64,000 nt of DNA from the NCBI GenBank assembly GCA_043228905.1, contig JBHGNT010000022.1, positions 2,294,001-2,358,000 of the forward strand, read 5' to 3'. A model generated the notes under the pieces. The model did no database searches. It had not been told where the DNA came from and saw only the letters and a list, made by a program, of their open reading frames with translations. This DNA is from Azolla caroliniana. Lineage: Eukaryota > Plantae > Polypodiophyta. The translations under genes and the position numbers were made by a program. How positions within the stretch are numbered: the first letter of the stretch is position 1; the number at the start of each line of letters is the position of its first letter. Below, piece after piece: positions 10,056 to 43,290 of the stretch.

Positions 10056-10329
10056 GGTTGAAAGCATGCGAGTGGAAACAATTAGCTATGTAAAAAGCTA
10101 CCATTGATAAACAGTCATTTTTGCAAAAAGCTACCATTGATAAATTAGCTATGAAAAATGCTACCATTGAAAACAGTAGAGAGTTTTAACTATATAAATG
10201 CGCACCATAAATGTGCAACATAAACGTGCAACATAAATTGATATGTGCACCATAAATTATATACTGAATTCCTAGGTCCATTATGCATGATCCTTTGCTA
10301 CATCACGTAGCCCATCTCTGGTTGAGTAT

Positions 10330-11015
10330 TCTGGCTTAGATTACTACCACTATTGCTAAACCCTATTGAGTCCACTCCTCCATTGCCGCCATTGTTTAGT
10401 CCAAGCATCAACTGCCAAGTTCACTCCTCCATTGCCGCCACTCTACACTTAGTTGCCACTATTGTGAGGGTCGTATATTCTTGCCACTTTTCGATCCAAT
10501 GCAGTTAATGGAGTTAGCTCCTTCTCCATTGCCGCCATTCTACTCTTAGTTGCCATCACTGTGCGTTCCAAGCATCATCTGCCACTATTCGATTTGACGG
10601 AGCTCACTCCTCCATTGCCATCATTCTACACTCAGTTGCCACTATTGTTCGGTCCTAGATTGCTACCACTTTTTGATTTCACAAAGTTCACTAATCCATT
10701 GCCATCATTCTACACTCATATGTCGTTACTGTTCGGTCGTGTATTGTTGCCACTTTTCAATCCGAGGGAGTTCACTACTTCTCCATTGCTGCCATTCTAC
10801 TCTTAGTTTTTGTCATTGTACGTTCCAAGCATCATCTGCTAGTGTTTGATCTGACGGAATTCACTCCTCCATTGCCATCATTCTACACTCAATTGTCGCC
10901 ATTGTTCGGTCTTGGATTGCCAGAACTATTCGATCAAACAAAGTTCACTCCTCCACTGTCGCCATTCTACACTTTGTTGTTGCCACTATTCGGCCCTGGA
11001 TTACCGCCACTGTTT
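10330..11015. repeat. Subterminal degenerate tandem repeat with core TTCACTCCTCCATTGCCRCCATTCTACACT
   Basis: The core recurs many times between the left TIR and the transposase start. Confidence 0.8.
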
Positions 11016-11165
11016 GTTCTTGGATTTCAATAACTATTCAATCTATTGATTAACTTGTGTATTGTTGTGTATAATCTTGTGTATTGCAGAATATTTTTGT
11101 GTATTGTTGTTGCCCATAGCCATCTTAAATACGTGTCTTTTTTTCGGGAAAATTAGGGTTTAAAT

Positions 11166-14100
11166 ATGTCAAGCCAAATGGAAGGGGAAGGAGGGTGTTT
11201 AGAATTACCCCTCAATGATCATCGGGATAGGGATGACGCTATCCGGACATGACAAGCAATATGAAAGTATTGGGCAGAAAAAAAAACATCGTCAATTGTT
11301 GAAGGATACGAAAGCCATAGTCACTAAAGGTAAAGATAGTATTGGTTGCGATATAGGTCCAAATATCACTGAGAATGGAAGTAATCAGACTACTATCATA
11401 GAGAGAAAGGTTGTAGACTATTTCAGTGTTCAAACCAAGCACATCAACAATGAAGACACAAAGGTAGTACTTTATGGAATATTAAATGATCCATCGATAA
11501 AGGAGTTAGTTGATTGTGATGGGCTTAATGCAAACATAACATCTGTACTAGTAAATAATCTCTGTACTAGTTTTGTATCCATGAGTAGGTCATAAGATGA
11601 TATTGTCTTAAAAAGTTCTAGTCTAATGATGTTACTTAATAGTGATGTTGACGATATTAACATCAATGTGCTATCTAAGGTAATTGGTGTTAGTAGAAAA
11701 AGTGTGTACAATACATTGAACTGGATAGTTTCGTCGGGTGAAGGAACTAGTCTGCTAAAGCTAACAACAAGATGTAAGCCAATGACACCCATAACATTAG
11801 AAATCAAGGATATAATCACAATATTTTGGACTAATGAGAGTAGGGTTTCACCCAATAAGAAGGATTTATGCAAGAAACGTGTTGGAAGGAGTCAATACGA
11901 GGAGCATCCCATTCATCTTCTTGATGTACCTTAGGTATTTACATTTATCTCAACATTTGTTTTGACTTTTGAGCTTAGTGAGTTAGCTTATTAGCTACCT
12001 CCAAATATGACCATACCAGAATAGCTAATTACTTACCTTAGAATATGACCATAGCTAACCAACTACCAATAATAGCTAATTAGCTACCAGAATAGCTAAT
12101 TAGTTACCTCAGAATATGACCATAGCTAACTAGCTACTAGTAATAGCTAATTAGCTACCAGAAATTAGCTACCTCAGAATATGACCATAGCTAACTAGCT
12201 ACTACTAATAGCTTAATAGCGATTGCCAATAGCTAATTTAGCTATTACCAATTAATTCGTTACCAGAATAATTAATTAGCTACCTAAGAATATCGATCAT
12301 AGCTATTTAGCTACCAGAATAGCTAATTAGGTACCAATCATAGCTATTTAGCTACCACAATAGCTAATTAGCTGCCTATGACAATAGCTAATTAGCTACC
12401 AAACTAACTAATTAGCTTCTTATCAGTATAGCTAATTAGCTACTTATGACTATAAGCTAATTAGCTACCAAAATAGCTAATCCCCTACCAGAATAGCTAA
12501 TTAACTGTGTATGACTATAGCTAATTAGCGACCAGAATTGCGAACTAGCTATTCCTAATAGCTAATTTAGTTATTACCAGATAATTAGCTACTAGGATAG
12601 CTAATTAGCTACCAATCATAGCAAATTAGCTACCACTCATAGGTAATTAGCTATTATAGTAGCTAATTAGTTGCCTCTGACTATAGCTATTTACCTACCA
12701 GAATAGCTAATTAGCTACCTAAGAATATGAGCATGGCTATTTAGATACCAAAATAGCTAATTAGATGTGTATGACTATAACTAATTAGCTACCAGAATAG
12801 CTAACTAGCTAAATAGCTACCTATGATTATAGCTAATTAGCTACTAGAATAGCTAACTAACTATTCCCAATAGCTAATTTGTTATTACTAGCTAATTTAG
12901 TTATTACTAACTAATTTAGCTACTAGGATAGTAACTATTCCCAATAGCTAATTAGTTATTACTAGCTAATTTAGTTATTACCAACTAATTTAGCTGCCAA
13001 GATAGCTAACTAGCAACCACAATAGCTAATTAGCTAGCCATCATAGCTATTTAGCTACCACAATAGCTAATTAGTTGCTTATGACTATAGCTAATTAGCT
13101 ACCAGATTAGCTAACTAGCTATTCCCAATAGCTAATTTAGTTATTACCAACTAAATAGCTACTAGGTAGCACTAATTAGCAATTAGCTACCGGAATAGCT
13201 AATTAGCTACCAAAATAACTAATTAGCTGCATTATGACTATTAGCTACCACTTAGCTAACTAGTTATTCCCAATAGCTAATTTAGCTATTACCAGCTAAT
13301 TAGCTACTAGGATAGTTAATTAGCTACCATAATAGCTAATTAGCTACCATAATAGCTAATTAGCTACCAATCATAGCCAATTAGCTACCGGAATAAATAA
13401 TTAGTTGCCTATGACTATTGCTAATTAGCCCAACTAATTAGCTACCAATCATAGCTATTTAGCTACCACAATAGCTTATTAGCTGTTATAAAAGGTTTGA
13501 AGCATAACTAATCAGCTAATCAATATGTCCATTTTATTACACAGGTCGATTTATTTATTAGGTTCAGGTGAATGCATTCAAATATCAAAGTTCGACTACG
13601 AACATTCGAGTCTCTTAAGCCACACTTTGTGAGACGCTTGAAGGATCGATACACATGTTGCATTTATGATGTAGAAATGGGTTTTCGCAAGCACTTTGTT
13701 AATCTACTGCGTCACTATAACGCCTCCCTAACTAATGCAGTTTGCACTTGTCAGTGCCGAATGTGTCGATCGAGCCCGCAAGAGCACTGTAAATCATGTG
13801 AGCATGTTATCTCTTTGATGGGTTGTCTTTTAGATTCAGTATTGTGTCTGAGAGAAATTGAGGCTATATTCCACAATTATAAATGTGTCATGGGTTTATG
13901 TCAAGATTGTGGCCCTAGTAGATTTAGGTGGTGTCCAAATGAATTGAGTAATGAAATATTAATCTCGGTCAAGTTATTTCAGCCAGTTGACACCAATTTT
14001 GAAGGAAAGGTGTTTAAAAGAAAGGATCTAGTTATGAAGTCGCTTAAACCAAGGGATTTGGCGTCTCTATTTGTAGTATCTCTAGGAAAGTTCATTAAAC

Positions 14101-15360
14101 ACAACTTCATTTATTCATGGCAAGCCCATCAGTTTAAGACTTGCATATCTAATTTTCCAAATGATGTAGTAGTCTCAATAGTAGATTTTGCAGAACATTA
14201 TACTTTCAAGCAACAGAATGAAATTCAATCTATGCATTGGTGTTCAATGCAGGTAACCATTTTTGTGCACATAACATAATTTCGAGTTTCAGGTGGTGTT
14301 AAAAAAGTAATTCATTTTTTAATTCTAATGATAAGAAGCATGATACCTTGTTTGTGTAACACTGTTTTATCTTACATTGGCAATGGTTATTATGTCAACG
14401 TTTGGAGCTTACTCAACATTGGGTCTGGTTCGATGGATCTGCGTCACAATTCAAGGTTAAAGGTCCATTTATTTTGTGGGGAGGTATCCTGCTATAACAA
14501 GTTTGGAGATGAGATGGATTTTTTTGGGTCTGGCCATGGTAAAGGTGACCATGATGGTGCAGGTGCTGTTATAAAGTGGTCACTTACCCATGAACAACTA
14601 AAGGCAGATGGTGTGTAGATGAGTTGTGCAGCACATGTAGTTGAATTTTTAAGAGCTAATATGTCAACGAGTGCAACTGGTGTTTATTCCTCGCGAGTCC
14701 GAGATATCAAACATGAATTTTGGGAAGTGAAGATAGATGAAGTAAATAGGGAGAAGACCTTGGAGTGCCAAGGAATTCCCGAATTGTGATCTCTCCATGC
14801 TATTCGCGGTTATTCTAGGTTGGATGGTCATTGTATTGTGGTTAGAGAATTAATTTGTTTTTGCGTCCATTGTGTGTAGGGAAATTGGAGGTATTGTTTA
14901 AACAAATCATATATTCAAAATTGGGAGTATCATACATTGAATGATAAGGAAGAAATTGATATGGAAACAGAAAAGAATGTTGACGTCACATATGAAGGAC
15001 GTGGAGATACTCTGAGTGAAGTCTTAAATGTTGGGGATAATTTCGCTATAAATGCAGAAGAAGGCAATTAAGAGGGTGTTGATTTCTATATATTGAAGTG
15101 CACGGTTAGTAAATAGTGTGCAACGCAGAATATTGTAGATGCTTGGGGAAATTTTGTATCTATCGGGACATTCTACATCGAAGGTATTTTTTACGATTAT
15201 GTGTATAGACTATTAGAAGACAAACTAGTGGCGTACATGTACTCTCATTTGGTCATGTGCATCAACATCCCAATGTCGCAATACAATAGCTGCTCAGGTT
15301 TATACATAGTTAGTGGTAATGTGTATGAATGTATTTACAACTGTCTTTTTTATATACAGT
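11166..15360 (+). pseudogene. Sola2-type DDD transposase, two exons (11166-11934; 13545-~15360), disrupted
   Basis: GT at 11935 and AG ending at 13544 join HLLDVP(Q/*)-VDLFIRF...MHSNIK in frame. Motifs: DFAEHY...NEIQSMHW, WFDGSASQFK, FFGSGHGKGDHDGAG, and Cys-rich segments. The end is approximate. Confidence 0.85.
11985..13520. repeat. Intronic satellite of palindromic TAGCTAATTAGCTA units
   Basis: Dozens of copies with short spacers fill the transposase intron. Confidence 0.95.
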
Positions 15361-15619
15361 CTTCTTTCTGTTCTTCTTTCTTAAAAACTAGTTTAATAAT
15401 ATCGTTTAGGGTTCTTCTTTCTTATATATATATTTACTCAAGTGAACCATGTACAAGTTAAAATAGTTTGCATAATTTGAAGAAAAAGTACTATCATGAA
15501 ATCAACAATCCTGAACATACTCTTAAAATTACTCAAAACAAGCAATTTAATTCTTCATTGATTAATCCGTCATCAAATTACATATTTATAACATCCCATT
15601 GGCAATGTCTACAAATCGC

Positions 15620-17298
15620 CTATAAATAGCTAAGGTCTTGCTAGTCAGTGGAACTTCTCTACATATATGATCTGCATACCGAGCTCGGTATGGAGTCCAC
15701 AACCATGCAGTTAGTTGGCAGCTCAATTGTTTTCACCAAGTAGTGTTCAGGCATTTCCTCGGGTAGAATGAGACAACATCTGCAAATGTTGAAGTAATGC
15801 CAGAAATGTTATGTATCCAAAATCAGTGTATTGTCGGCATTATATTTTGGCCAAGTGGCCCAAAACTCAGAAAGTCTTTTGAGTGTTGCAACATCCTTTT
15901 GCTCCCATTTCTCTCGTGTCCATTGACCCTTGAAATGTTGTCACCACTTCGGGAAGAATCTTTCTACACACTTCCACACATCTGTACATGGTTTTTCACT
16001 CCAAATAAACAAATCAAAGTATTGCACTACCCACTCTAGAAATTGATTTGCGTCCCTCCTTGGTGTCATATATCGCACACTCATCAGGACTTTATCAAGC
16101 TCCAAGATCAAGGGTCTTCTTTCGACTTCTAATGGTTTAGGTTTCCATTCCTGTAACTGAGCCTCTGTTACCCCAATTACTGGTAACACACGATCAATTT
16201 CAATCAACTCACGTTTTGTCGACACAATTGGTGTCCTTTTCCTCTTCACACCCCTTTGACGACTTAGTCATCAGTCCTTGTATTAGCTCGGTGCATGTAA
16301 ATACTGATCTGGTCGATATCAGCCCACTGGTATCACATGCTGCATCTACCTGCAAAATCAGATCATCTGTGCAACATGCTTGATCAATTTGCGTGACTAG
16401 ATCATTTGTGTCAGTTGCTACATCTACTTTCAAGAGGTGACCCTCTAAACACACAGCAACATCAACAGTTTCCACACTGCCATCGGCCTTAGGAGCAATA
16501 GATTCAAACCCTTTAGACTCTGCAACATCAGAAAACACCAACTATTCACACTCACAAAGTAACTAACAGTCTCACTAAACAACATAATGAACATGAAATA
16601 TTTTCCATCATAGAACAACATGAACATAATTATCTTGGAGAAACATCATAGATTTCTATTACATAATGTGGATCAAGCAACAACCAATCAAAGGTTTTAC
16701 TTGTCCAAATAGATCATAGTAAAACTTCATAAAACCCTAGGAAAATCGCTAACAATCATATCCCACTAATAAGTATTTTGCTCCAATTCAAGAGCCCCTT
16801 CACCGAGTAACTAGTCTTGTCCCTAATCGTGGCCCCTTCTTCAGTTTTTTCTAGCCGGTTGCCGATTTAGCTTTGCTTCTTTCACCCATTGCGCAAGTGT
16901 GTCCTCCTCCGACAACCATTCCATCACCTCAGCAGCGGCTTGCACATCAACCGTGTCTTGCGCTAGCTTTCCAGTTCTTTGGGATCTGTTTGGACATTAT
17001 CAGTAGTTGGACTCGATGGGGTGGAATCAAGGTTTTGGGATTCGAAGAAATGTTGCATCAAGTGTTCAAAAACATTGTTATTGTGAACCTCAGATTTACA
17101 TATTGTTCCCAATATTTCATGGCTTTTCACATCGTTGCCTAATTCAGTACAATCTTCCAAAAGAATAGAGTGGAGGTGATCTGAAGGAGATGTGATAGCA
17201 GGACTCTTACTTTCAGCCACGTTGGCAGCTATCTCCTCATCAGTTGCAGCGTCATCAGCACCGAACACCTCATGCACCCTCCTTAATCCACAAGATTC
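15620..17298 (-). pseudogene. 3' exons of the Sola2 second gene, ending in an FCP1/NIF (HAD) phosphatase-like domain
   Basis: RRPLILELDKVL...QFLEWVVQYFDLFIWS...KRLSEFWATWPKYNADNTLILD resembles FCP1/NIF motifs; upstream exons are acidic and low-complexity (16209-16541, 16963-17298). Confidence 0.6.
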
Positions 17299-17309
17299 TA
17301 CAACAACAT

Positions 17310-17463
17310 GGTAGCTAATTAGCTACTCAGCTACATCTTAGCTAACTAGCTATTCTTCTAGACTGTGACAATAGCTAATTAGCTACCACTGAGCTAATTA
17401 GCTACGTCGCTTAGGTATGGTAATAGCTAATTAGCTCAGTGGTAGCTAATTAGCTACTCTTTG
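17310..17463. repeat. TAGCTAATTAGCTA array, left part (contiguous with 35909-36405 before the insertion)
   Basis: Same palindrome on both sides of the CTTTG TSD. Confidence 0.85.
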
Positions 17464-20020
17464 TGTTACGAGCATGACCATATGATATCCCGTAGTGAGA
17501 ATTTACCGTAGTATTCTGACAACCTGTTAGGCCAAGTGTGAACTTGCCTGGGGGGCTTGGGTATCGCTATAAATATGAGGCCTAGCTACCCTCATTTCAT
17601 CATATCTTGACTATGTCGAGACTCTAACGTTGAGGTGGGTCAACTCTTGTAGCGAGCGCTCCAGCACCAGGTACGACTCGATGCCACGACGGTGGTATGG
17701 GACACCGATTGAGGCTTGAGTCCATCTCGATCCCTTCACTCGGGGGTGGTCAAGTGGATCGGCACCCTTCTTTCTCTCTCTCCTTTCTATCTATCTATGT
17801 TTTATCATTATCATATGCTTACTTTAGATCATAACTCTAACAGTTGGTATCCGAGCTTATGTTTCTAATGTTTCCTTTGTTTGTTTTTGTCTTCTTGATG
17901 GATGGTGATCGATCGTCGTGCGGTTGACCTTGATCTAGATAGCGATCAACAAAGGAACTTCGGTAACTCTTTCTTGTTTTCTTTTTTGTATTTTTTCTTC
18001 TCCCATCTAATCATGTATATGGTCAATATAAATTTTTTTTCATTGATTCAATGATGTTGTAGTGGTAATTAATTGGTTGTATAAAACGTTTACATATGTG
18101 TATGAGGTCAATACCTCATTTGACATATATTTGATATGTGATTCATGTCGTATGCGTACGAAGTTAATACCTCAATTGCGTATTACGTTCACATACATAT
18201 ATTATGTATGTGTATGAGGTCAATACCTCCATTTCTATGTAAATGATATGGGTTTGGTGTCGTATGTGTAAGAGGTCAATATCTCAATTGCGTATTAAGA
18301 TTAACCCTTATTTTTGGATGTTTTGTGTGCGTAGAGGCTATATGCCTCGATTACGTATCTCGATTTCATCATATGTTGGCTATTTGATGTTACAATTTTT
18401 TTAATATACACATATGTGGTCACGTGTATACGTATTTGATCGTATATATGTGATAAATAAACATATGTGTATATTTGATATTACGTGATCTTTGTATCGA
18501 ATGTTGTCCTTTTCGGGGAAAGGATCTTGGTGACCGTCCTCACGTTTTTGTGAGAATGGCGTAGTCACCATCCTTTTTTAAACAATTTTTTTGTTGACAT
18601 CCCCGTTGGTCACTTCGATTTCATTACGTAACAAAACGCTCATAGCCACAATGATTTTGAGAACGTAGGGCTTGACCCACTTCATGTGAGATCGCTCCTA
18701 TGGCACACATATCCGACAGTCCTCCCTCATTACATGGATACGATGCCACCTTGAGATCATTCTTACGAAAGGTATTCGTAATGACGTAACCATGTGATGG
18801 GTCACGTGGGCCTACTACGAAAAGAGGGTTCATTTGGCTTGACCATTAGGTTGCACTTTGGCATCTGCCATCGTAATTATGAGACTTGAGGTTAGGTAAC
18901 GTACCAACATAGTTTGTGGTAAATGAGGGGGAAATAAGGACTCTTGACATATATGTTTCTTTTAAAAAAACATATATGAGAAAATGCCTTGCATATCTCT
19001 TATACGCATAAAACATTAAACATTCAACACGAGCAACCTATTTGGTTAGCTCAAGTGTTTAATGCATTTGTTCTCAATGTCTCGAGTTCAAATATGACCA
19101 AGACCATACAACATTGTTGATACATATGACTATAATACATGTTTAGACTTTAGGTCTAAGTGCACTTCGGGGTCCTCGTAATAGGACTTAAAGAGCCAAA
19201 ACCACATATGTGGGCACAGAAACATAGTTTATTGTTAACATTTTTTTTGTGTATAAACTATTCATGATGCGAACATACATGGTTGAGCCTCGGGAAGCCA
19301 TCATGAAAAAAGTCGATATAGAGATTAGGGAAAGACATTCATTTGTCACCCCCATGGTTTTTAAAACACCTTTGTGTTACTAGAATAACCTGATCTTGAA
19401 CTTTATCTCATATGTCTAGAGAGGTATTGGTGTGAGACTATGATATCGATTAATGTTGGCCTATGATATGTTTGCATCACAACTTGATGTTCTGACTATT
19501 TGTTTGACCTTATCCTATTTCTTTGCCAAAAATAATCATTCAATGGCTCAGAATAACGACCCGATGTCATCCGCTCAAGCGGAAGGAACTCAAGGAAATC
19601 CTTCTGGAGCAATCTCCATTGAGTTGTATTTCTTACAAATACAAAATTTCCTTAGATGTCTGAACTTTGGCAATCTCAAAGTGCTCTCAGGGCACGTGTC
19701 ATTAGTTTACAACGTGACACTAATAGACCCATTGAGCGTCAAGGTGAACAATCATTTGTCGTAAATCCATTTACAGGAGAATAAAAGGAAAGAACCGAAG
19801 AAGCAATCTGCCCGGGGGCTCCACTATATATAAAGAGGTTGTATCACGTGCGTTCATGGCATCTTTTATAAACCCCTTATACGTATATTTTTTACTATTT
19901 TAGATACCCTTCTATAAAAAACGACTAATAAAAATACCCCTTCGTGTCAATATATATTTTGATAACAACTCATTTTAAATGCCCTTACATAGAAGACACA
20001 TGTATGTTTTATACATGTGT

Positions 20021-20055
<35 letters not shown>

Positions 20056-21983
20056 CATATGTATGTATTGCATTGTATTCCATGTTTATTTATTTATGTG
20101 TTGTATATCTTACATGTATGGCATGTGTCTATATGTTATGTGTATGTGTGTAGTGGCTTGTGTTTATTTGCACCTAAATCATAAAGAGGCCTACAAGAGA
20201 GTCGTTCCATGGACAATACAAGTTGCCCAACTTAGGGCATGTTTGATTTGGATAAAAAAGTGTCATAAAAAAATCTTGTTTTTGGTCACCCGACTCAAAG
20301 GCAGTCACCTAACAAGTCACTCGACTCAAATAAAGTACCCGACTATCTCAAGGCAAGCAAGTTACAAGTAAGGAAGTGATAAATTGAAAGAATGCTAAAA
20401 GTAAATGGCTTAGTGATTAGAGCCATTCCTTAGATTCAATGGGTTTAAAGTTTGAATCTTTGTTCCCTCTTAGTGAGAAGAGGGTTCGCTTTCCTTATTG
20501 GTCAATTTTGAGGTCTTTTACGTTTACTTCTTCTTCAACTTCTTTCTTTTTTAGGGTTTCAACATTTGGCTTTAGGGTATGAAGTTCCTTTACACTTCAT
20601 TTACATTTAAGGGGCACTAATAACGTTGTTGAATTCAACATCTTAATTATTAAATGTGTTCATTTTTTTTCATCACAAGTTTGTAGTTGTCGGCACACAC
20701 ACAAAGAAAAGATTAATTGAATTTTGAAGGACTTAAGGGAAGTGGCTCGACTTAACTTAAGGGAAGGGAATGTTATGATAGGAGAGAATTGGGGATACCA
20801 TGGGATTCTAGCAACAAGCAATTGATTCTTGCATGTCTATATTTCAAGAAGGGATAGAAACAAACAACATGGGAAGCTACAAACATGAACCAAATTTTGC
20901 ATTGAACCTAAGGTTTAGGGTTTACTAAAGTGGTAAGGATTGTTTTACTAATAAAGACTCAAGAGTTCATTATTTGGTTTAATAGTTATTCTCTATTTAA
21001 ACTTTATGAAATATCATCAACAATCATCATGAATACTCCATTGCAAGAAGTCCCTTCAAATGCTCAATCATTTCTCACATCCCAACATATTTCAATGAGG
21101 AAGAGATTAATATATGATTATTCAATATGTGAAGCTTATCAAACAATATATGTGCTACATGGATCTAGCCACATTTGACTTACATGATACATATCAATTA
21201 CACTATTGGCAATACAATATCCCCTTCTCGTACACCTTTTCCTCAAATTACATAGTTTGCAACAAACAAACACATGCAAAACCAACTTGCAATAATAATG
21301 AAACATGTTTCAAATCAAACCACCATTAGACCTAAGGGTCAAATGGTGTTTCAAAGAAACAATATTCATTAGACTAGATGAAAGTAATGGAAATAGTTTT
21401 ATATTACAACACATACAATTATTCATTTATCAATCAACTAGACTATCTTCCCCTTTTACAACAGCCACTCAGAAGCTTAAATATGTTTAATATTTGTAAT
21501 CAGTAGACCACCTCACTAGGTATCCTCTCCATATTTAAAATACTAATGAAGTGTTCTTCATTTTCCTACTACTTTACAAATGTGACCTTCTGATTGTTAC
21601 ATATCCGTTAGTCTAAGCAACAATCTACCTATTATGGGCTTTAAATTGCTCTATATTTAATTACTATGAGCATACAAGAGTTTAAAAGTAAACACATTTT
21701 GGTAAGCAACATGTGCATTGTATACAGTTGAGAAGCAATACCAGTTGATGTATAATTGAAAGTGAAACATGAATTATGTGCCCAAAACATTGATAAATAT
21801 TTAATCTAATTACCATGACTTACATGATGAATATAACACGTATAAGAGGAGCAAACTAGGACATACAAATTTAGTCCAAAGCTTTAGGATTTGGAAGTTT
21901 CAAAGTTTATGCAATTCATAGGAATGAAGACCAACCATACTGATAGAACAAAAGACAAACATAGGAAGAAATGCATGATTCAC

Positions 21984-23875: not shown

Positions 23876-23906
<31 letters not shown>

Positions 23907-24316: not shown

Positions 24317-24364
<48 letters not shown>

Positions 24365-30560: not shown

Positions 30561-33500
30561 GCAATCTGCACGTGGTTGGGCCGATGGGAGTCTCATTTTG
30601 AGCTCTATCCCATGCCAGATAGTACGAAGATTGCATATGTTAGCCGAGAATTAGGGGGTAAGGCCGCCTGCTGGCATGGGCTCCGAACATTGGGGAGATT
30701 GCCCAATACTTGGACAGATTTTGTCACAATTTTTAAGGGCCAGTTTCTACAACCTCCCTCTTGAACCGAGGTGGCACAAGCTTTAATGAACCTCTCTAGC
30801 AGGAAGTTTTCCTCGCTAGAAGACTATGCCCACCATGCTAGAACCCAAATCCAAAAATCGGGTCTAGAAGGGGACAATTGGTTAATAGCTTGTTTTGTCA
30901 ATGGCATCCCCAATTTAGACTATCATTGGATAGTGCACGATAAGGATCCAAAATCCTTCGAAGAGGCTGTTGAAATAGTTCTCTGTCAACGCACTTTGAA
31001 GAAGGACGATAACAAACCCAACGAAGCCCGAGACTAAGCAGTCGCAATTCACTGGGAAACGCAAGACACCAACGAATTCATGGATCGTGATTGTAAGCAA
31101 CAACATCCTTAAAAGGGTCATACGAAAGAACAATGTCGAAAGCTCCAACGGAAAGAGCATGACAACAAAGCAAAAGTTGCAGACCAGAAAGGTCAAATTC
31201 CTAATGTCCTTGAGGTCTATACACATCATTTAAGTAATTGTCCATGTTCTTTCCCTCAATATGTATTGGGACCCAATGATTTACTATGTGCAAAGGGGTA
31301 TGTCAATGGATCTCCCATACAATTTTTATTTGATTTGGGAAGCTCACACAATTTTGTGAATGATCGTTTGGTTCAAGTATGGGGAATCCAACCCATCGTA
31401 AGTGATCACAACTTTAGGGTGCACTTGGCTCATGGAATAGTACAATACATCAAGGGGACGATTCATTCATTAGGAATTTCTATTGATACTTATGTAGAGG
31501 AAGTAGACTTCCATGTAATGAATCTTTGTACCACTGATGTAATATTGGGTTATCCCTGGTTTTATAATAAAAACTCTTCCTTGTCTATTGATTGGGTTCG
31601 TCATTCCATTTCTTTTGTACTAAACAATTGTACTCATTTTATTCAATGTGTAAATAGATAATCCCTTTCGATTGTTTCCTCTCCATCAATATCTGAGTTG
31701 TCTTGTTCTTCTTTATTTTATTGTGTACTTGATCCAAACATTCACGTTATAATATTGATAACGTCTCAGGTCAATTGACATATTTTGAACAACAACAACT
31801 CGATAAAATCTTAAATGATTTTCATGATGTTTTTTTGAGTGAACTACCACATGGGTTACCTCCTAAACGTATTATAGACCATAGTATAGATATTGTACCT
31901 GGCGTTGCACCAATAAGTATACCTCCTTATCGCTTAAGTCGATCCGAAGAGGATGAGGTATCTAAGAAACTCAAGGACTATTTACGAATGGGTTATATAC
32001 GTTATAGTAAATCTCCATGGGGTGGACTTGTTCTCTTGGTAAAAAAGAAAGAGGGCAGATGGGGTATGTGTACTAATTACCGACGCTTGAATAAAGTGAT
32101 GATCAAGAATTAATATCCATTGCCACGGGTTGACAATCTAATTGACCGTCTCTAGGGAGCTCGGTATTTTACGAAACTTGATCTCCGTACGGGGTACCAT
32201 CAAATTCGTATAAGTGAGGATAATGTTCCTAAAATGACATTTCATACACGTTATGGCCATTATTAGTTTTTGGTTATGCCTTTTAGTTTGACCAATGCTC
32301 CGGCCACATTTCAACAAGAAATGAATGACATTTTCCGAGAACAACTTGGAAAATTTGTCGTTATTTTCTTGGATGATATTCTAGTTTATAGTTGTACATT
32401 AGAAGAACATGCTAAACATGTTTGCTTTGTTTTACAAACATTGCACGACAAACAATTCAATGCGAAGATCTTAAAATGCGAGTTGTCCAAGAAATCAATT
32501 ACTTATCTTGGACATCTCATAACCGAATGAGGAGTTGAAATTGATCCTTCTTGCATTGAGAAAATCTACTCCCAATTGATGATGCCATTTACTGATATTC
32601 TAAAAGGTCAAACACGTTGTCGTAGTGTAATTTACACACTACGTGGAAATAACATTTTGTCCATCCGGATAGAGAATGAAATACCTGGTGAGAACCGGAC
32701 GAAGGAGGAATCGGCAAGGAAGAGCCGGATGAAGAAGGCCGGTGAGAGTCTCTTACGGGATGAAGAGACACAATTGTAAATAAAAGAAACATTAAAATTT
32801 CTGTTACATGCATAGGGCAAGATTCAAACCCTACACCTCCACGCAGACAAACTCCAACCTTACCATTATACTAAGTTATTCTAAGTGTTCTAAATATAGA
32901 TTTAATATGTATAAAACCTTTATTTTCGCCTACCTTTATTAAAAGGTAAGTCATGCATTTTTAGAATGCGTGAAAACTTTATTTATATGCACACTAATAA
33001 AATTATGCATGCACATCTAGTGGGCATGAATGCTAAATTTAGGAAATTGTAGTGGGAAAAGTAAAGCATGCAAATTTAGAGAGCATGAACACTTTAGAAA
33101 AGCAAGAAGCTATGCTTAGCCTCTTCTGTCCTTATATAAGGAGGAGAGAAAGATGTATAAGGGTTGGTTATTTTTGGATTAAGTATTGATCAATATAAAA
33201 ATTATTCGTGGGATTCACGATTTATGCATCTACTTCTTTCTTAACAACCTAAGTACCAATTAATATAGTATATTCGTGTGACTCACGAATTTCTTATGTT
33301 TCTCTTTGCTATCTACTCATAATTAATCTCTATCTCACGATCTCCTTTCTCCTAGTCCAAAACCCCAACGGTTCCCACCCGACTCACGTAACGATCCGAC
33401 GCCGAGAGGCATGACAATGTAAGTCTACAAAACATATTGTGTGGAATGCTACACTAGACCGCGCCTTTAAGGAACTCAAGGATCTACTGTGCAAGGTTCC

Positions 33501-35365
33501 TTCGCTTCTTTTACCCGATCCTTCAAAACCTTTTGAAGTTGAAACCGATGCAAGCGATTATGCTATAGGTGTTGTCCTATATCAAGATGGTAAACCAATA
33601 GCATTCGCGAGTAAGAAACTTGATTCTGCTCAATGTCAGTATACGGTTCAAGAAAGGAATTATTTGCAGTTATACATGCGCTCAAAACATGGCGCCATTA
33701 TCTTTATGGAAATCGTTTTGTGGTAACTACAGACCACGAGTCCTTGAAATATTTTTGTGATCAACAAGACCTGAAAGGTTGTAAGACATGATGGGCTGAT
33801 CTCATCCAGGACTTTGATTTTTCCATATGATATCATAAAGGTTCCATGAACATTGTCGCTGATGCACTAAGTCGCATCCGTGAAATTAACATGCTTAGCT
33901 TCATTGAAAGAACATCAGATCTTTATGATCACCTTCGAGGAAAGTATCCTGATGACAGTTATTTTGCAAAATACTGGGCAAGAGTTGAGTCTGGAACAGA
34001 CACCACCACATCCTCGAAGGAATCCTTCCACATTGCTAACGGTCTGCTCTACCGTAATGGGAAGGTTTGTATTCCAGATTTGCTTGAGGTGAAAAAGAGA
34101 ATTCTTTTTTAATGCCATGATGCACCCTTTGTGGGGCACCCTAGAATACATCATACACTTGTTCTCATCTCCACTCAATTCTATTGGCCTAAGATGTGTC
34201 CTAACATACATAGCTATGTGACTAAATGTCACCAATGTCAGGTTAACAAAGCCGAGCGACTCAAAACCGAAGGACTTTTACATCCCTTGGACATTCCCAA
34301 TAATAAGTGGGAAAGTATATCCATGGATTTTATTATTAGCCTTCCTCGCACCCAAAAAGGCCATGATGCCATCTGGGTTGTGGTTGATAGACTAACTAAA
34401 ATGGCCAGATTTATTGCTACTAAAACCATGATAACAGCTCTTGAATTGGCTTACCAATTCGTTGACGAGTTATTTCGTTTTTATGGGTTACTGATGGATA
34501 TCGTGAGTGATCGAGATCCAAAGTTTGCTAGTGACATCTGGACACGTTAGAAACTATGTTGAGCATGAGCTCCATGGATCATCCGCAATCCGATGGATAA
34601 ACAAAATGAGTAAATCAAATTATTGAGGACATGCTTCAAGCATACATTGGTGCAAAACAAACAAAACGAGAATGTTATCTCCCAATTTTGGAGTTTGCTT
34701 ATAACAGCTCCAAGCATACGTCGACGAGATATAGTCCTCTTATGTTGATGTATGGTTTTCAGCCATGAGCCCCTATTGATGTTAATATACATCATGATGA
34801 GTTGCGAAGTACGCAAAAATTTCTTTGGGATATGCAAGATATGTTGCATATTGCATGAGATAATATAAAAACAGCTCAAGATAGAGCGCGTTTTTACGCC
34901 GATCATAATAGGCAACCTTGTGTATTCAATCCTAGACAAAAGGTATTTTTACATGTACCTCACAATTCTAAGACATTGTCTATGGGTAAGTGCACTAAGT
35001 TAGCCCCACGGTTTTGTGGACCTTTTCAAGTCCTCAAACGCATTGGTTCATCAGCCTATTGTCTGACTCTTCTTGATGGCGTCGAAATTCATCTAGATTT
35101 TCATGTAAGTCGTCTAAAAGAACTTCTAGGTTCTGGCGACAATACAGTTAGAACTGAAACTCTGGTTACTTCTGAAGAATTATCTTCTAAACCACATGTA
35201 CCAGAAAGAATTCTCGATGTTAAAACAAAAAACCTGTGTACTAAAATAATCTGAGAATTTAAAATTAAATGGATGGATAAATCTATCAAAGATGGCACAT
35301 GGGAACGCGAAAATACTCTTAGAACTAAATTCCCTAACTTTCCATTGCAAGAGTGCAATGTTTTA
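30561..35365 (+). pseudogene. Chromovirus gag (3' part)-PR-RT-RH-INT-chromodomain
   Basis: FDLGSSHNF, FLDDILVYS, ETDASDYAIG, WESISMDFI, and chromodomain-like PERILDVK...KIKW...TWE. Confidence 0.9.
32618..33416 (+). mobile_element. Solo LTR of the Trp-PBS Gypsy family
   Basis: TGTCGTAG...GCATGACA with TSD ACGT/ATGT, inserted in the chromovirus pol. Confidence 0.92.
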
Positions 35366-35908
35366 AAAAGGGGGAGTATCTTACGGTCATGACCATATGA
35401 TATCCCGCGGTAAAAATTTACCGTAGTATTCTATACACATGGATAAGTGTGAGAGTTAAATGAGAGTGTAAAGAAGGGGAGGATTACTTTTAATCCTCAG
35501 GATTGAGATAACCCGTTAAAGCAAGTGTGAACTTGCTTGGGGGCCTTGGGTATCGCTACAAATATGAGGCCTAGCTACCCTCATTTCATCATATCTTGAC
35601 TACGTTGAGACTCTAACATTGAGGTGGGTCAACTCTTGTAGCAAGCGCGCCAACACCAGGTACGACTCGACGCCACAATGGTGGTATGGGATGCCGATCG
35701 AGGCTCAAGTCCATCTCGATTCCTTCGCTCGGGGGTGGTCGGGTGGATCGACACCCTTCTTTCTCTCTCTCCTTTCTATCTATCTGTGTTTTATCCTTAT
35801 CATATGCTTAATTTAGATCATAACTCTAACAATTGGTATCCGAGGTTATGTTGCTAATGTTTCCTTTGTTTGTTTTTGTCTACTTTAGATCATAAGTCTA
35901 GCACTTTG

Positions 35909-36405
35909 TCAATATGGTAGCAAGTAATTAGCTACTCTACTAAAGTATGGTAGTAGCTAATTAGCTACCACTTAGCTAATTAGCTAATGTACTAAACTAT
36001 GGTAGTAGCTAATTAGCTACCACTTAGATAATTAGCTACTCAACTAAAGTATGGCAGTAGCTAATTAGCTATTGCAATAAACTATGGTTGTAGCTAATTA
36101 GCTACCATTTAGCTAATTAGCTATTGTACTAAACTATGGTTGTAGCTAATTAGCTACTCAGCTAAAGTATGGTAGTAGCTAATTAGCTATTGTACTAAAC
36201 TATAGTAGTAGCTAATTAGCGACCACTTAGCTAATTAGCTACTCAGCTAAAGCATGGTAGTAGCTAATTAACTACCACTTAGCTAATTAGCTACTCAACT
36301 AAAGTATGGTAGTAGCTAATTAGCTACTGTACTAAACTATGGTAGTAGCTAATTAGCTACTCAACTAAAGTGCAGTAGTAGCTAATTAGCTACCACTTAG
36401 CTAAT
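35909..36405. repeat. TAGCTAATTAGCTA array, right part
   Basis: Regular GTAGTAGCTAATTAGCTAC units. Confidence 0.92.
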
Positions 36406-36508
36406 TGTGAAAGTTAGCGTGCGAAAGCGTTCGACAAACCGACTCAACCGGATAGCAACAGAAAATGAGAAAAGGTTTCATGGAGAACTTAACACAAAGA
36501 ATACGCAT

Positions 36509-36547
<39 letters not shown>

Positions 36548-36550
<3 letters not shown>

Positions 36551-36625
36551 TGTAGCTCAATTGGTAAGGTTGCCCAATGGAGACCAAGTGGTCATGGGTT
36601 AAACCCCTACATTCCACAGTGGCAT
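36548..36625 (+). other. tRNA-derived/SINE-like segment after a (GA)n tract within the Copia LTR
   Basis: A-box TAGCTCAATTGG and degenerate B-box GGGTTAAACCCC at tRNA-like spacing. Confidence 0.5.
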
Positions 36626-38056
36626 CTAGTGAAATAGAGATATATATGAAATATATAATAGAGAGGTGAGGAAATTGGGTTTCAAAACCAAGACAAGGCC
36701 AAGACATAGTGCTTGTAGTGTTATCGACTTACCACTAGGGTAAGCTAATTACGATAAAGAAAATAGAGAGAGAGAGAGAGTAGAACATAAACTTAATTCA
36801 AAATAACACTTAGAAACTTTGTGTACATAGAATGTGCTCAGTGAGCACTTTTATACAAGTCCATAAAGGATTGACAGAAGTACTGACAGGTACTTCAATA
36901 TTCCTACGTGCGACTGACACTAACTATGAGACAATGATTACCTAGTAGTCTAGGCTAGTACTAGGCTTCCGGTTTGCACTTGAATCCAGCTCTATGATCC
37001 GTCTCCCCGATCTGGCCGGTTGTATCCGGATACCGATCTGGCTCATCCTTTCGGATATCATCCAGATACCGATCCAGCTCTTTGATCCGGATACCAATCC
37101 GGCTCTGGCTTATTTAGCCGATCCGGATCCAGTTGAACTTGCTCGCTCAACGCTCGCCCTTAAGCTCAACTTGAGGTTGGATTGTGGTGTCAGTGTCTGT
37201 AGTAGCCGGTCCTTTCCTTCGGCTCCTTCTGTGTCCTCCCGCCTTGCTCGCGCTCCTCGTCCGGTCCGGTTCCGCTTCCCACGACCTGTCCGATACTGCG
37301 CACCTCGATCTCCTTGGCCGGCTTGTCTGCTCAACAGGCCCATATCAGCTCCTTTGCTGTTATGACTACGACGCTTGTCGATCTATCAGTTTCTCCGTGT
37401 CGGTGTCGACTTCCACTGCCTTCTTGTCCGGTTGGCCTTTAGTTGATCCGGCTTCCCCGAATCTTGAACCAGCTCTTGTCCGAGTCGGTGATCTCCAACT
37501 CGCTTCTTGATTTCAGGCTCTTCACCACATCAGACCATGTTCAGGTCTTGGCCTTCTCCTTCCGGTTGGCTTTGTCCTTCTTGACTTTGCCTCCGCCGCC
37601 ACTCGTTCCGACTTGTTCGGATGTGCCGACTCCCATCGTCAACTCAACCCCCTTTTTCCTCTAGTCTCCCCCTTTGCTGGTTCTTTCTTCCTCTTTGGCT
37701 CCTTGTCTAGTGCCTTCCGTTCCCTTTCCTATTCTCCCCCTCAAGTGCGGCACATTGAGATGTTGAATGTCGAGCATCTCCGAAAAGTGTTGCAACTTGT
37801 CCAATCCGAGCGGCTTGGTGAAGATGTTGGCAACTTGTCGATCTGTGTGAACATACCGAAGTTCAACTTCACCGCTCAGGACTTGCTCACAAAACAAAGT
37901 GATAATGCACTTCGATGTGCTTTGTCCAAGCATGGAATACAGGGTCTTGTCAAGTTGGATGCTGCTCATGTTGTCACAGTGGATCGGGATCGGGGTCAAC
38001 ACCTCGATCCGGAGGTCACGCAACAATTGCCGAAGCCAGATGGCATCACAAGTGGT

Positions 38057-38354
38057 TGTTGGCATAAAAGGCCGACTCCTTCCAAGTTGTATCCATCCGA
38101 GTGTGAACTCATGAATAAGTTAGGGCTTAGTATATAAGCGAATACCTAACATTGTATAGAGTGACGAGTGATACAGAGATGAAGCGTCTGTGTATTGTAT
38201 CTCTGAGAGAGATTGAGAACGAAGCAATAAAGCTTTCCATTAGAGCTTGCACTGTGTAAGTCCATGCCTATTCTACTTTCTGTGTACGTTGTTTGCTGTT
38301 CAGAACCAACAATAGATCCATACACATTTCCGCAAATCGCACTTGTTACCAACA
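38057..38354. mobile_element. 298-bp solo LTR inserted in the Copia RNase H
   Basis: TGTTGG...CCAACA termini, TSD GTGGT/GTGGC. Confidence 0.85.
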
Positions 38355-40991
38355 GTGGCAATGGTAGTGCCCCAGTACTTAGCCTCAGTACTTGATAGAG
38401 CCACTGTTGGCTGCTTTTTGCTCCTCCACGCAACAACCGTGCTACCAAGAGAAAACATATTACCGGAGGTGGGTCGACGATCCGATGCATCCCAACCCAG
38501 TCCGTATAACAGTCAACCAGCTTCCCAGCTATACCGTGTTGGTATAACAGTCCCCGATCCTTCGTGCAGCTAACATACCGGAGTATCCGGTGTGCGCACT
38601 GAAGGTGCTCGACGATCGGCTTCTGCATGAATTGGATGATCACTTCGACCGGATACATGATGTTAGGTCGAGTGATTGTCAAGTATATGAGGCTTCCGAC
38701 AATTTGTCAGAACTGTTTCTCATCACAGGCCGGGTCAAAGTCAGGACGTAGCTTCAGGTTCAAGTCCAGGGGTGTAGAGATCGGTCAACATTCTGTCATG
38801 CCGAACTTGTACAACATATTCAACACATAATGGCGTTGTGAGAGAAATATGCCATCGAGGGTTCGAATCACCTCGATCCCAAGAAAATAATGAAGGTCCC
38901 CCAGGTCCTTCATTTCAAATGTGTCTGACAGCTCGGACTTCACTTGGCTGATTTCAAGAGTACGGGGCCGGTGATGACTAAATCATCTACATAAAGAAAA
39001 ATGCAAACTGGACCGCCCGGACCGTTCTGGATGAACAATGAAGAGTCAGACTTTGAGGCCACAAACCCCATCTTACACAACCGATGTGTGATCTTCGCAT
39101 TCCAAGCTTGGGGGGCTTGCTTTAGACCGTAAAGTGACTTCTTGAGGCGGCATACTGCCAACTTGTTCATCTCCGATTGGAATCCGGGGGGTTGGATCAT
39201 ATAGACCCGTTCTTCAAGATCACCTTGAAGAAATGCATTCTTCACGTCCATTTGGTGAAGATGCCATCCCCTTGCCACAACAATTGTCAGTACCACGCGA
39301 ACCATCGTCATCTTCACTACCGGAGAGAAGGTCTCGTCGTAGTCGATTCCGTGGGTCTCTGGGTATCCCTTCGCCACTAACTGGGCTTTGTATCGATTGA
39401 CCGAACTATCGATGTTGTACTTTACCTTGTACATCCACTTGCAACAGATCGGATTGCACTATCCGGGTGGGTCAACCAGGTCCCAAGTGTCGTTGGCATT
39501 TAGTGCTCGCATTTCTTCCTCCATAGCAGCACGCCAACTTGCGTCTTTTGTTGCTTCTGCGTAGCTCTCCGGCTCACGCACCTCCACCCCTTAGTCATGT
39601 ACGCATAGTGATGTGCCATGTACTCATTGTATCCGTACCTTTGGATGGGGTTCTTCTGGCAGATTGAGTGGCTTAACTTTCCGTTAGCTAGTTTGAGGCC
39701 ATTTTTGGCCGGTTCGGACTTCCTTTCTGAAGATCCGCCTTCTTCCTTTCCGGGGTCAGATCCGCTTCAATTTGACCCTTCACTGCCGGTATCGTATTCC
39801 AACATCTTCTTCTTCCCCTTCTCTTTGCGCGTGAACCGTCTCCTCCGTTCCTTGTGCGGGGAGAGCATGACAGAGTCTCCACTACTCGCTGGTTCTTCAT
39901 CTGACTGGTCATCCCGATTCAGCCGTTCATTCGGTCCACTTAGCCGGAATTAGATCAGAGTCTCTTCTAGAGTGCCGAAGTCTTCATCATCTTCCAGGAC
40001 CTCGTCGGGCTCAATAGCCTCATCTTCCGGAATCAGGTCTTCGTCGGGAGTTGGAGTCAGTAGGGTGTACCATGATGCCGACTCATCAAACTCAACATTT
40101 CGACTTACTCATACTTGTTTAGTACGGTAACACTTATAACCCTTCTACTCATGTGAGTAACCGACTAGGATGCAGTTCTCCGACATCAGATCTAGCTTCT
40201 TCTGCTTCTCATCCGGTACATGCACATATGCTATGCTACCGAATATCCGAAGGTGCCTCAAATTTGGTTTCTGCCCGAAATACAGCTCCTATGCGGACAC
40301 CTTGTCTCCGATCCGGTTTTGGATGTAGACGGCTGTCCGTACCGCCTCAACCCAGTAGAATTGGGGCATGCTTTTCTCCTCTAGCATTGCCCTTGCCGCG
40401 TCGACAATCGACCGGTTCTTCCTTTCAGCCACACCGTTTTTGCTCCGGTGTGTATTTACCTCTGAATTCTTTCCGAATTCCGTTCTGCTGCAGATAATTG
40501 TTGAATTGGGCGGAAAAGTATTCTTTTCCGCCATCCGACCAAAGGCACTTGTTCTTCCTCTCCGTTTCCCATTCAACTAAGCTTTGAAGGTTTCAGAAAC
40601 ATTCGGAGACTTCGCTCTTCCTCTCAATGAGGTAGATCCATGTGTGTTGGCTGTAGTCGTCTATGAAGGAGATGAAATACCAAATCCTGCCAAGACTAAT
40701 GTTCTATGCCGGTCCCCATACATCTGAATGGATTAGATCAAGCCGGTGTTGCTTTAGTTCGGTACGGAATGGAAGCCGGTGTTCCTTCCCGAGTTGGTAG
40801 GCTTCACATATTTGGGCCTTCCGACAACTTAATTTCGGCAATCCGAACACAACTTGTTTCAATTGCAGGTCTTGAAGCCTTTGGTAATTGACTTGCCCGA
40901 TCCGCTTATGCCAGAGATCGATGTCTGATTCAATCTTCTGTCCTTTGGCAAACATGGCGGTGCTGACGTCATTAGTGTTGAGGATGAACAT

Positions 40992-41418
40992 TGCTCGGCC
41001 ACAACTGAGTCTTGAATCACTTCTATGAGAATGAAACACAGAAATGGGAAATGGAGTGTAGACAAGGAAATACATAGGATGCTTACGTGGAAAACCCTAA
41101 TAGGGAAAAACCACGGGAGCCCACAGACTCCAAACTATCACTATATGAGAAAGGTACATTCAGAGCCTCAAAGGCAACGACCTAGAGCTCTGTATCTTCG
41201 CCAACCGGTAGTTACAACAGAGTATCGCTCTATATCTCACACTCTCTCTGACTATTGCTCTCTGTACAACAGTTACAATAGTATGAAAACAACACTATGC
41301 ACTATCACATCCACATAAAGTGATTGCCCTAAGTCATATTTATACTTATATGAACTTAGGACTATTTACAAATGTAGCCTCAATAGGCTTACTCAAGACA
41401 TAACTAGCAAAGATGTAA
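40992..41418 (-). repeat. Partial Tnt1-like Copia LTR related to 48028-48822
   Basis: The reverse complement shares GTATAAATATGACTTAGGGCAA and GTGGGCTCCCGTGGTTTTT...TTCCACGTAA blocks; boundaries are approximate. Confidence 0.7.
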
Positions 41419-41458
41419 CTAATTAGCTACAACAAGAAACAAGAATTGATTAACTTAC

Positions 41459-43075
41459 TTGTAGCTTGTCCAAATTGTAATCAGCGACAGTATTTACACC
41501 TAGAAGGTCTAGGTTCATTGAAAGGACCTAGATCTCTATCTACAGTTGAATTTTCCGCTAGGGATCCATCGACCCCTCAATTTCAAGCTCATGTTGAGCA
41601 ACTTGTTCCAGATAATGCCTTAGTAGCAGATTTTCATGTACAAGTTATTTATAACATATTACATACTAGCAAAACAATAGGTACCTGATTGTTGTAACTG
41701 CCAAAGTGACTTTGCTCTCCATCGTAGCAGCCAATGTTGCTTTCTTTAAATCAGTCTTAAAAAACTCCAATGTCTCACAGGCTTCATGGACATTTTTTAG
41801 CATATAGTTAATCAATGTCTCACCTGTATCATCGATATTGGCTTTCATTGTGTATCGGTGTGGTGTATACTTGCGGGTTTGTTGGGAGTCGGCAATTGCA
41901 TCATCAACTGGCATGCTCCAAAATCTTGCCATTTTTTGTTGCAAGCTCCCCATCTTCCGGCATCTTTCTACCGATGCCTCACCATAAATTGCCCAAGCTG
42001 CCCTGTACATTTCAGGTTCACAAGATTCCTTCGATGTTTTACAATACTCGTATGCAAAAGCTCTAGCAAATGAAACGGACAACTTGTTATTGACCGGGAT
42101 CTCTTCATGTACTTTCTGGTGCAGTCTCATGCAGTCATTGTACATGTCCAGTAGTACACGCTTGAGCTTGACCTTGATTTTCACTCTAGGCACTTTATAT
42201 ACTGACATCCAATCTACATCACTAATCAATCTATATGTTAGAACAATAGGGTCAAAACCCTAGAACGACAGACCATATATGTTGTGAAAGTTCTCCTTTG
42301 TCTCGCAAAATTTGCGAATTTCATCCCTCTAGGATAGGGAGGAACAAGCCACCTAAAATAGAAAATCAGTAATCAGAATTGGTGCAAAAACAGAAATTTT
42401 AATGTGAATATGGTACAAAATTACAACACTTTGAGACAATAATTTGAAATTTGTTATCTCTCCTTTTCAACATGTATCAGAAATCAACCACTTAAAAAAT
42501 AAGAAACCCTAATCAGAATTTGTCATGAGAATTGGTGCAAAATTGCAACACATTGCAACAGTAATCTGAAGTTTGTAATTAGAAATTTGTAATGAGAAAC
42601 TTGTAATCTGAAATTTGTAATTAGAAATTTGTAATCAGAAACACTAAACCACTTAAGGGAAACACAAACCCTAATCATCACTAAAGACAGAAATCAACCG
42701 TAATACAAAATTCTGTCATTCAGAAAACACACTTGCTGCTACACCCGATCTTGGAGACATCCTTGTTTGGGACTCTAACGAATTCGCCCTATTCGATTTT
42801 TGGGAAAGATGAACAGACACCAAAGTTATAGACAGTTATTAGAAAGGAAAAAGAAAGTTTTTTTTAATATGTAACTAATACATACCTAGATGAGGATCGA
42901 ATTGGTCGTGTGTTGTAGCTTTGAAGGTGCAATGTCGATCTCAGAGTTTTTGTGCTGCTGCAAGAGCTTCGAGTCTGCGTTTGTGCTCAGAGTACTCTAT
43001 CTGTTTGGATTTCGAACTCAAACTTAGGATTAACAGGAATTTGATGACATTCAAGTCGACCTTAGATGATGGCAT
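41459..43075 (-). pseudogene. 5' exons of the Sola2 second gene, function unknown
   Basis: ATG at 43075, donor after 42886, acceptor before 42352, long exon including ORF 41666-42229, probable donor near 41458. Linkage to 15620-17298 is inferred. Confidence 0.5.
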
Positions 43076-43290
43076 TATTCCCCAAGTTCCACTTCGTCAG
43101 AAACCAAAGTTCAAATATTTGAGTATTCTCATAAATTAAATGACATGTATTTAACTAATAAAACATAAAATTTCGTAAACCATCCTTATGATTTGCCTAC
43201 AAAAAACTAGCTAAATAAATAGCTAATTAGCTATGGCCATTTTAGTAGCTAATTAGCTATAATAGTGTTTCCACTCGCATGCTTTTACCC

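Follow-up and report, generated by a model that had tools for sequence, protein, structure and literature searches.

What kind of element lies at positions 10056-43290 of the window, by which we mean the whole 64,000-nucleotide stretch of the Azolla caroliniana genome analysed here (GCA_043228905.1, contig JBHGNT010000022.1, positions 2,294,001 to 2,358,000, forward strand), and what might its second gene be for? A preliminary description had taken this interval for a complete, Sola2-like DNA transposon with two genes. Here, we show that it is a dead member of a high-copy Sola2 cut-and-paste family whose second gene (gene 2) is conserved and convergent with the transposase. By analogy with the VANC and TnpA proteins of other transposons, we suggest, at a probability of roughly 45%, that the gene 2 protein may be a reader of the element's own arrayed motif and act as a counter-silencing factor.

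A dead copy of a high-copy Sola2 family

The left terminal inverted repeat (TIR) starts at 10056 with GGTTGAAAGCATGCGAGTGGAAAC, and the right TIR starts at 43290 with, in reverse complement, GGGTAAAAGCATGCGAGTGGAAAC; the two are identical at 22 of 24 nt. The target-site duplication (TSD) GCAT abuts both ends (10052-10055 and 43291-43294). The element disrupts a DUF7869 transposase gene (Pfam match of the host gene to DUF7869 at 3e-43), and excising it together with one GCAT yields a 608-codon DUF7869 frame with 1 internal stop, as against 16-28 stops when the join is shifted by 1-2 nt. Empty sites are also available: in 13 of 14 other copies of the DUF7869 host family the flanks overlap by exactly 4 nt, and the 14th, a short alignment, has a single GCAT. 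Together, the empty sites and the restored frame make the element boundaries and the 4-bp duplication firm. The matching TIRs and GCAT duplication of the preliminary description are confirmed. Its claim of completeness holds for the ends but not for the genes. Both carry stops and frameshifts and the RING exon of gene 2 is absent, so that this copy is inactive. Sola2 TIRs begin 5'-GRG, and here the right terminus reads GGG, as expected, whereas the left reads GGT, a mutated GGG. The features of the window copy are as follows (window positions; strand, or a point where none applies):

10052..10055 (.), left TSD GCAT, from flank comparison and empty sites
10056..10079 (+), left TIR (24 bp) with a family-motif half-site behind it; the family form is GGGTGAAAG..., GGT being a mutation
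10370..11030 (+), degenerate tandem repeats 5' of the transposase
11166..11934 (+), transposase exon 1, helix-turn-helix (HTH)-like, with frameshifts and stops
11935..13544 (+), transposase intron with an array of the palindrome TAGCTAATTAGCTA (array about 11984-13490)
13545..15342 (+), transposase exon 2, Sola2 DDD core (DFAE-Y, SDG-ASQFK, GHGKG-HDG), with stops and frameshifts; 3' end gone
15589..16519 (-), gene 2 last exon, acidic stretch and FCP1/NIF-like HAD domain, ELDKV replacing DxDxT; broken
16794..17302 (-), gene 2 acidic linker exon
17311..17459 (.), motif array, left part, in the large gene 2 intron
17464..35903 (+), nested Ty3/gypsy-type long terminal repeat (LTR) element and further insertions, TSD CTTTG (5 bp); foreign to the Sola2 family
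35904..36405 (.), motif array, right part, in the large gene 2 intron
36406..41410 (-), nested copia-type fragment without a matching LTR pair or TSD, at the place of the missing RING exon
41453..41602 (-), gene 2 coiled-coil exon
41684..42354 (-), gene 2 N-terminal helical-domain exon (no Pfam family)
42738..43000 (-), two small predicted 5' exons of gene 2, start codon mutated; the basis is splice signals only
43219..43290 (-), right subterminal motif copies and right TIR (43267-43290)
43291..43294 (.), right TSD GCAT, from flank comparison and empty sites
43295..44113 (-), DUF7869 host gene, 5' part (3' part at 9051-10055)

Subtracting the nested insertions (the gypsy-type one of 18.4 kb and the copia fragment of 5 kb) leaves a net length of about 9.8 kb, in line with the two-gene element of roughly 10 kb first proposed. 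The spliced transposase and the convergent multi-exon gene of that proposal are both present.

The TIR pattern has 556 exact matches (286 + 270) in the 523-Mb genome, and its reversed control has none. We took 31 facing TIR pairs from the first 100 listed matches, and copy counts out of 31 refer to these. Every pair is flanked by its own 4-bp TSD, and every copy starts and finishes with GGG and has a TIR of 24 bp. Across 32 copies (the 31 and that of the window) the TSDs comprise 28 different words with 73% A+T. We reject a chance match of the TIRs. Most copies (20) measure 10.1-12.2 kb; the others are deleted (3.6-8.8 kb) or contain insertions (15.6-24.6 kb). A 142-residue transposase-core query gave 1219 first-look candidates in the genome, of which the 150 that were scored are 96-100% identical. 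When the genome was searched for a sister family, the scored candidates all belonged to this Sola2 family. Fifteen young copies diverge by 0.1-0.9% from their own consensus, indicating a recent burst. The window copy falls in an older subfamily that shares about 80% identity with the young one; members of the older subfamily are 3-5% off their own consensus. Both genes are open in five of the 31 copies (L031, L035, L037, L039 and L081), with all seven tested coding pieces complete. The internally deleted copies L057, L059 and L071-L076 have lost neither TIR, nor the 5' exons of gene 2. The coverage pattern is the same in L057 and L059, which suggests an amplified non-autonomous subtype.

The transposase consists of two exons, and its core fits the published Sola2 alignment motif by motif, as judged by eye (PMC3627910 Additional file 10). 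Shared with the Repbase Sola2 proteins of that alignment are the core (DFAENY-EIQS-HW, HD, SDG-ASQ(F/Y)K, W-FF-(T/S)-HGKG-DG), an N-terminal FY/FW-SR-P-KKD and HxxC-C-YH region, short TIRs and an AT-rich 4-bp TSD. The Azolla family differs from them in its land-plant clade, its motif-array intron, its convergent gene and a TSD that goes beyond AWWT. All four transposase motifs of the preliminary description are found in the window copy, with stops and frameshifts between them. Residues D215, D298 and D339 and the HGKG motif are invariant across 48 homologues. Named homologues come from Ceratodon, Calypogeia, Cryptomeria, Taxus, Adiantum, Holothuria and Labeo, and animal proteins with the same motifs are among the matches. 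The transposase has no Pfam match, DUF7869 (the Sola1 type) included. We reject membership of a superfamily other than Sola2.

We also built a midpoint-rooted tree of 97 cores, whose rows include no Sola1 or Sola3 reference and which leaves out six loci as well as proteins lacking two anchor motifs. A clade of 77 rows (support 89/95) includes all four plant-named rows and stands apart from the animal-named rows; nested in it, a 25-row clade (99/95) unites the window family with the related loci L090 and L093-L096. The outer TIR GGGTGAAAGCA is common to the window family, L090, L095 and L143, whose transposases are 59%, 45% and 35% identical to that of the window family. Between the young and old subfamily consensuses, the ratio of nonsynonymous to synonymous substitution rates (dN/dS) is 0.16 for the transposase core and 0.39 for exon 1.

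Gene 2 and its relatives

In intact copies, gene 2 opens with two small predicted exons. Next come the exons for a helical domain (the N-domain, about 140 residues), a coiled coil, a RING-H2 finger and an acidic linker and, last, that for an FCP1/NIF-like domain. Three contig sets aligned to copy L035 revealed no splice joint in either gene, so that the exon joins of both are based on splice signals and homologues, and the linker-to-NIF join is tentative; the predicted gene 2 splice signals are retained in 12-15 of the 15 young copies. As to whether gene 2 always lies within the TIRs, a check that the preliminary description had suggested, the N-domain and coil exons are found in all 31 TIR-bounded copies, internally deleted ones included. 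The RING exon is present in 30 (one partial) and the NIF exon is nearly whole in 24, and the right element end lies within 1.5 kb in 21 of 29 old copies. We reject the idea that gene 2 is an unrelated neighbour. Four of the five tested gene 2 exons are under purifying selection. Again between the two consensuses, dN/dS is 0.22 (0.12-0.36) for the N-domain, 0.17 for the coil, 0.38 (0.18-0.83) for RING and 0.19 (0.10-0.32) for NIF.

The RING-H2 ligands (C3H2C3, CxxC-C-H-H-xxC-C-xxxC) are present in both the young and the old consensus, with Pfam RING matches below the cut-off. The NIF domain scores 31.1 bits against a Pfam cut-off of 21.8, and those of L093 and L095 score 55.3 and 27.1. The catalytic motif of FCP1/SCP phosphatases is DxDx(T/V). 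It is altered in all six sequences aligned, reading ELDKV in the window family and DLNGL, DLNGV or DMNGL in five relatives, and the NIF-like domain is thus likely to be a pseudo-phosphatase, judging from its residues. The NIF exon also varies by 13-residue tandem units, with open frames of 353-405 aa.

The N-domain is predicted with a mean local confidence (predicted local distance difference test, pLDDT) of 96 and a predicted template-modelling score (pTM) of 0.89; an earlier fold from a shallow alignment was unusable (pLDDT 46). No Pfam family, DUF1985/PMD included, was matched among 65 aligned members. The model found no match in the PDB by Foldseek (best E 2.1), over 48,161 chains by VIA (best Z 2.4) or in a viral structure library (best E 1.2). 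Such non-matches of a predicted model are no proof of a new fold. No VANC entry was among the fold matches, and the VANC structure 9LNK, given in PMC13547354, may not be in the libraries. In the Atlas, the whole N-exon reached unnamed clusters at 0.85, and the moss-clade N-domain reached PF20167 (putative plant transposon protein) at 0.86, which we take as a lead only. Within the Azolla genome, neither PF10536 nor PF20167 gave a signal, and the controls gave none either. A profile search of gene 2 against solved structures matched coiled coils only.

How widespread is this gene? A profile search gave 150 proteins with the N-domain; among 69 that were scanned, three also match NIF and four also match RING. 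The N-domain, RING and NIF occur together, in the same order, in single proteins of Adiantum nelumboides, and of all named homologues of gene 2, those of Adiantum are the closest. We also surveyed 80 metagenome loci around related transposases, most of them short. A convergent NIF exon lies behind L093 (48% transposase identity) and L095 (45%), that of L095 being nearly identical to the Adiantum proteins. A distant, convergent N-domain lies behind L099, L100, L105 and L150/L152 (profile match 96.6%). In L099 and L150, RING-like exons come after it; the tree puts L099 and L100 in a clade with Ceratodon. Homologous convergent genes adjoin Sola2 transposases of fern-like and moss-clade contigs, though not all of them. 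Of all parts of gene 2, the N-domain varies least between clades. At L141:3658-4917 (+), a 420-codon open reading frame (ORF) with a terminal RING finger immediately follows a related transposase and shares its strand, whereas the layout elsewhere is convergent.

Motif arrays and the role of gene 2

The palindrome packs both the transposase intron and the large gene 2 intron, and is also found just inside both ends; there is none in exons. In copy L031, 43 of 46 full palindromes are in the two large introns and 3 are at the ends. The intronic ones lie 2-4 kb from the ends, and the largest array is in gene 2's own intron. Across the 31 copies the number of full palindromes ranges from 8 to 65. 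Tandem repeats also occur in the homologous transposase intron of most of 23 related loci scanned. Among 12 homologous introns, each top 9-mer appears 0-2 times in the other 11, a comparison in which the motif is each intron's own top word, so that the diagonal is high by construction, and which is weak for L099, L143 and L113. In L031, L090 and L095 the array word is found again behind the shared TIR core, no more than 150 bp from the left end; in L143 this is weak. In each related family, the same transposase intron holds an array of a short motif peculiar to that family, which also stands beside the shared TIR core where the left end is clear. Such a layout suggests a binding site for a protein, with a sequence that differs from family to family.

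If the gene 2 protein does read the motif, the parts could fit together in the following way. The transposase would recognise the conserved outer TIR and make the 4-bp duplication. The N-terminal helical domain of gene 2 would read the family motif, probably as a dimer or oligomer via the coiled coil. The RING-H2 finger may be a ubiquitin ligase or scaffold, and the FCP1-like domain, with its altered catalytic motif, may bind a phosphorylated protein of chromatin or transcription. As in VANDAL/VANC and Spm/TnpA, motif and reader would change together from one family to the next, and motif binding by the gene 2 protein would keep the element active against host silencing. A bolder version, which we regard as possible but doubtful, is that a Sola2 lineage of seed-free land plants has its own sequence-specific counter-silencing, independent of VANC and TnpA. 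In it, a reader of undescribed fold would dock on intronic and subterminal arrays and bring a RING ligase and a pseudo-phosphatase that remove or block silencing proteins, with reader and motif co-diverging from mosses to ferns. Transposon anti-silencing has so far been worked out mainly in angiosperm MuDR and En/Spm. If the bolder version is true, a third superfamily would use the same motif-array logic with an unrelated protein, which would imply repeated invention and hint at a ubiquitin-based route.

Footprints of cytosine methylation bear on the silencing part of this proposal. Inserted old copies decay equally at CG (13.1%) and CHG (13.8%), seven to eight times the rate at CHH; this excess suggests that the host likely methylates inserted copies. 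Synonymous sites of gene 2 keep CHG cytosines (0.42 versus 0.47 for CHH). These footprints fit low non-CG methylation while the element is active; ordinary transcription or codon usage, which confounds the synonymous-site test, could look alike.

Several observations weigh against a motif-reading, counter-silencing gene 2 protein. Synonymous CG is strongly depleted in both genes (0.15-0.18) and synonymous CHG is depleted in the transposase (0.28 versus 0.41, p=0.01), which implies that the lineage was methylated for long periods. The linker exon is without clear selection (dN/dS 0.57, 0.31-1.09), and the N-domain is only mildly basic (25 K+R, 22 D+E). No gene 2 domain was detected in the 9-10 kb downstream of L136, L140, L143, L145, L160, L164, L166 and L167, where small or decayed exons could escape, and no NIF exon was detected in the 2.4 kb behind L091, where there is only a linker-like ORF. 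The limits of the intron comparison given above count here as well, and the motif also adjoins the TIRs, where transposase sites are expected.

Gene 2 might instead be a transposition cofactor without any part in silencing; it would bind the transposase or the subterminal motifs and help to put together or turn over the transpososome. Precedents for such a cofactor are the second protein of PIF/Harbinger and TnpA in its end-synapsis role. Motif copies directly inside both ends and the retention of the tail-to-tail gene pair over deep divergence agree with it, and a RING finger could tag the transposase for turnover. However, the 43 intronic motifs of L031 are far from the ends. Moreover, the animal Sola2 transposases of Repbase were aligned as single proteins and several plant loci are without a detected gene 2, so that gene 2 seems dispensable for the chemistry. 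We consider a cofactor role quite unlikely.

It is also possible, if unlikely, that the arrays are sites of the transposase, bound by the HTH of exon 1 and self-activating, and that gene 2 does not read the motif but acts on host proteins, which it would ubiquitinate or bind as a phospho-mimic. In keeping with this, the match of exon 1 to an HTH (E 6.5e-5) is below the cut-off but present, the exon evolves faster than the core, and intron arrays persist at L143, L145 and L167, where gene 2 was undetected. According to bioRxiv 10.64898/2026.08.24.746577, a transposase alone can be a sequence-specific activator of cognate copies. What speaks against this reading is the largest array in gene 2's own intron, as with VANC, and the constancy of the accessory N-domain across clades. 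Alternatively, gene 2 might be captured host cargo of no use and the arrays products of slippage, given that RING and NIF are common host domains and that tandem repeats arise easily in introns. This explanation is very improbable and largely refuted: dN/dS is well below 1 in four of five exons, the domain order is identical in fern proteins, the gene lies convergently beside transposases of about 35-48% identity, and the array motif is also the subterminal motif in three families. The young, near-identical copies, the five open copies and the related families with different motifs make motif reading by the gene 2 protein testable.

Known systems and other insertions in the window

The preliminary description had Sola2 elements as described mostly from animals and protists and as having a single gene, a background to be corrected in the light of Sola2-Fanzor1 of Dictyostelium fasciculatum and Polysphondylium pallidum, which has two genes in about 12-13 kb (PMC3627910). 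Like the Azolla element, it has a second gene in its 3' part, short TIRs and a 4-bp TSD; its cargo is TnpB-like, whereas ours is an unrelated three-domain protein accompanied by motif arrays. Sola1-1_Ec32 of Ectocarpus, another element of the Sola superfamily, likewise has an accessory gene on the opposite strand, for which an action on the element's own DNA has been proposed, but it belongs to Sola1 and carries ParB and an amino-methyltransferase (PMC12477816). VANDAL elements share with our family an accessory gene and a family-specific short motif amplified by tandem repeats in introns and non-coding DNA, with a copy-variable repeat number, and the variable regions of VANC contain tandem peptide units, as the NIF exon does (PMC5735166). 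VANDAL is of the MuDR type, with a long TSD; our family differs by its Sola2 transposase, 4-bp TSD, palindromic motif and added RING and putative pseudo-phosphatase domains. En/Spm TnpA is a second element protein that reads clustered, family-specific motifs near the ends (bioRxiv 10.64898/2026.08.24.746577), a reading that is putative for gene 2. TnpA is transposase-derived with terminal motifs, whereas gene 2 is a separate convergent gene with mainly intronic arrays. Sola2 has been annotated in a brown alga (PMC12477816), and in a conifer it is reported to be more abundant than any other class II superfamily (bioRxiv 10.64898/2026.07.23.736688).

An undescribed plant lineage, as first proposed, is therefore partly anticipated: plant Sola2 is annotated in print, yet we found no description of this lineage. 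The RING, pseudo-phosphatase and family-specific motif arrays go beyond the earlier proposal. As far as we found, plant Sola2 and two-gene Sola elements are already in print and this cargo and array design are not; no plant Sola2 with either was found in the literature searched, and Bao et al. 2009, Repbase entries and bioRxiv supplements (conifer transposable-element tables) may bear on novelty. Multi-copy 'hypothetical proteins' of fern annotations would become recognisable as likely transposon cargo.

Finally, the window contains other repeats. The interrupted DUF7869 (Sola1-type) host family (9051-10055 and 43291-44113, -) is itself multi-copy, with 804 first-look candidates and some seemingly identical copies. 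In the nested gypsy-type element, a second primer-binding site stands behind the right LTR (35831-35903); some 50 nt of internal sequence, the short end of an LTR and then the TSD come after it, an arrangement that suggests aberrant strand transfer or deletion. The same element holds long, degenerate, TATG/TG-rich low-complexity tracts (23800-26100 and 29700-30500), and another insertion, which has direct repeats at 26183 and 28794, separates them. A tRNA-like or SINE-like (short interspersed nuclear element) stretch was seen by eye at 36540-36620, between microsatellites at the edge of the copia fragment. Another gypsy-type element, at 53296-55305 (-), has an extra 669-codon ORF behind pol that matches no Pfam family; kinship of this ORF to the N-domain of gene 2, suspected by eye, was unsupported by profile comparison (probability 0.1% and 2%). 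Two related gypsy pol regions, 72-75% alike, lie in opposite orientation at 57543-59086 and 62500-64000.

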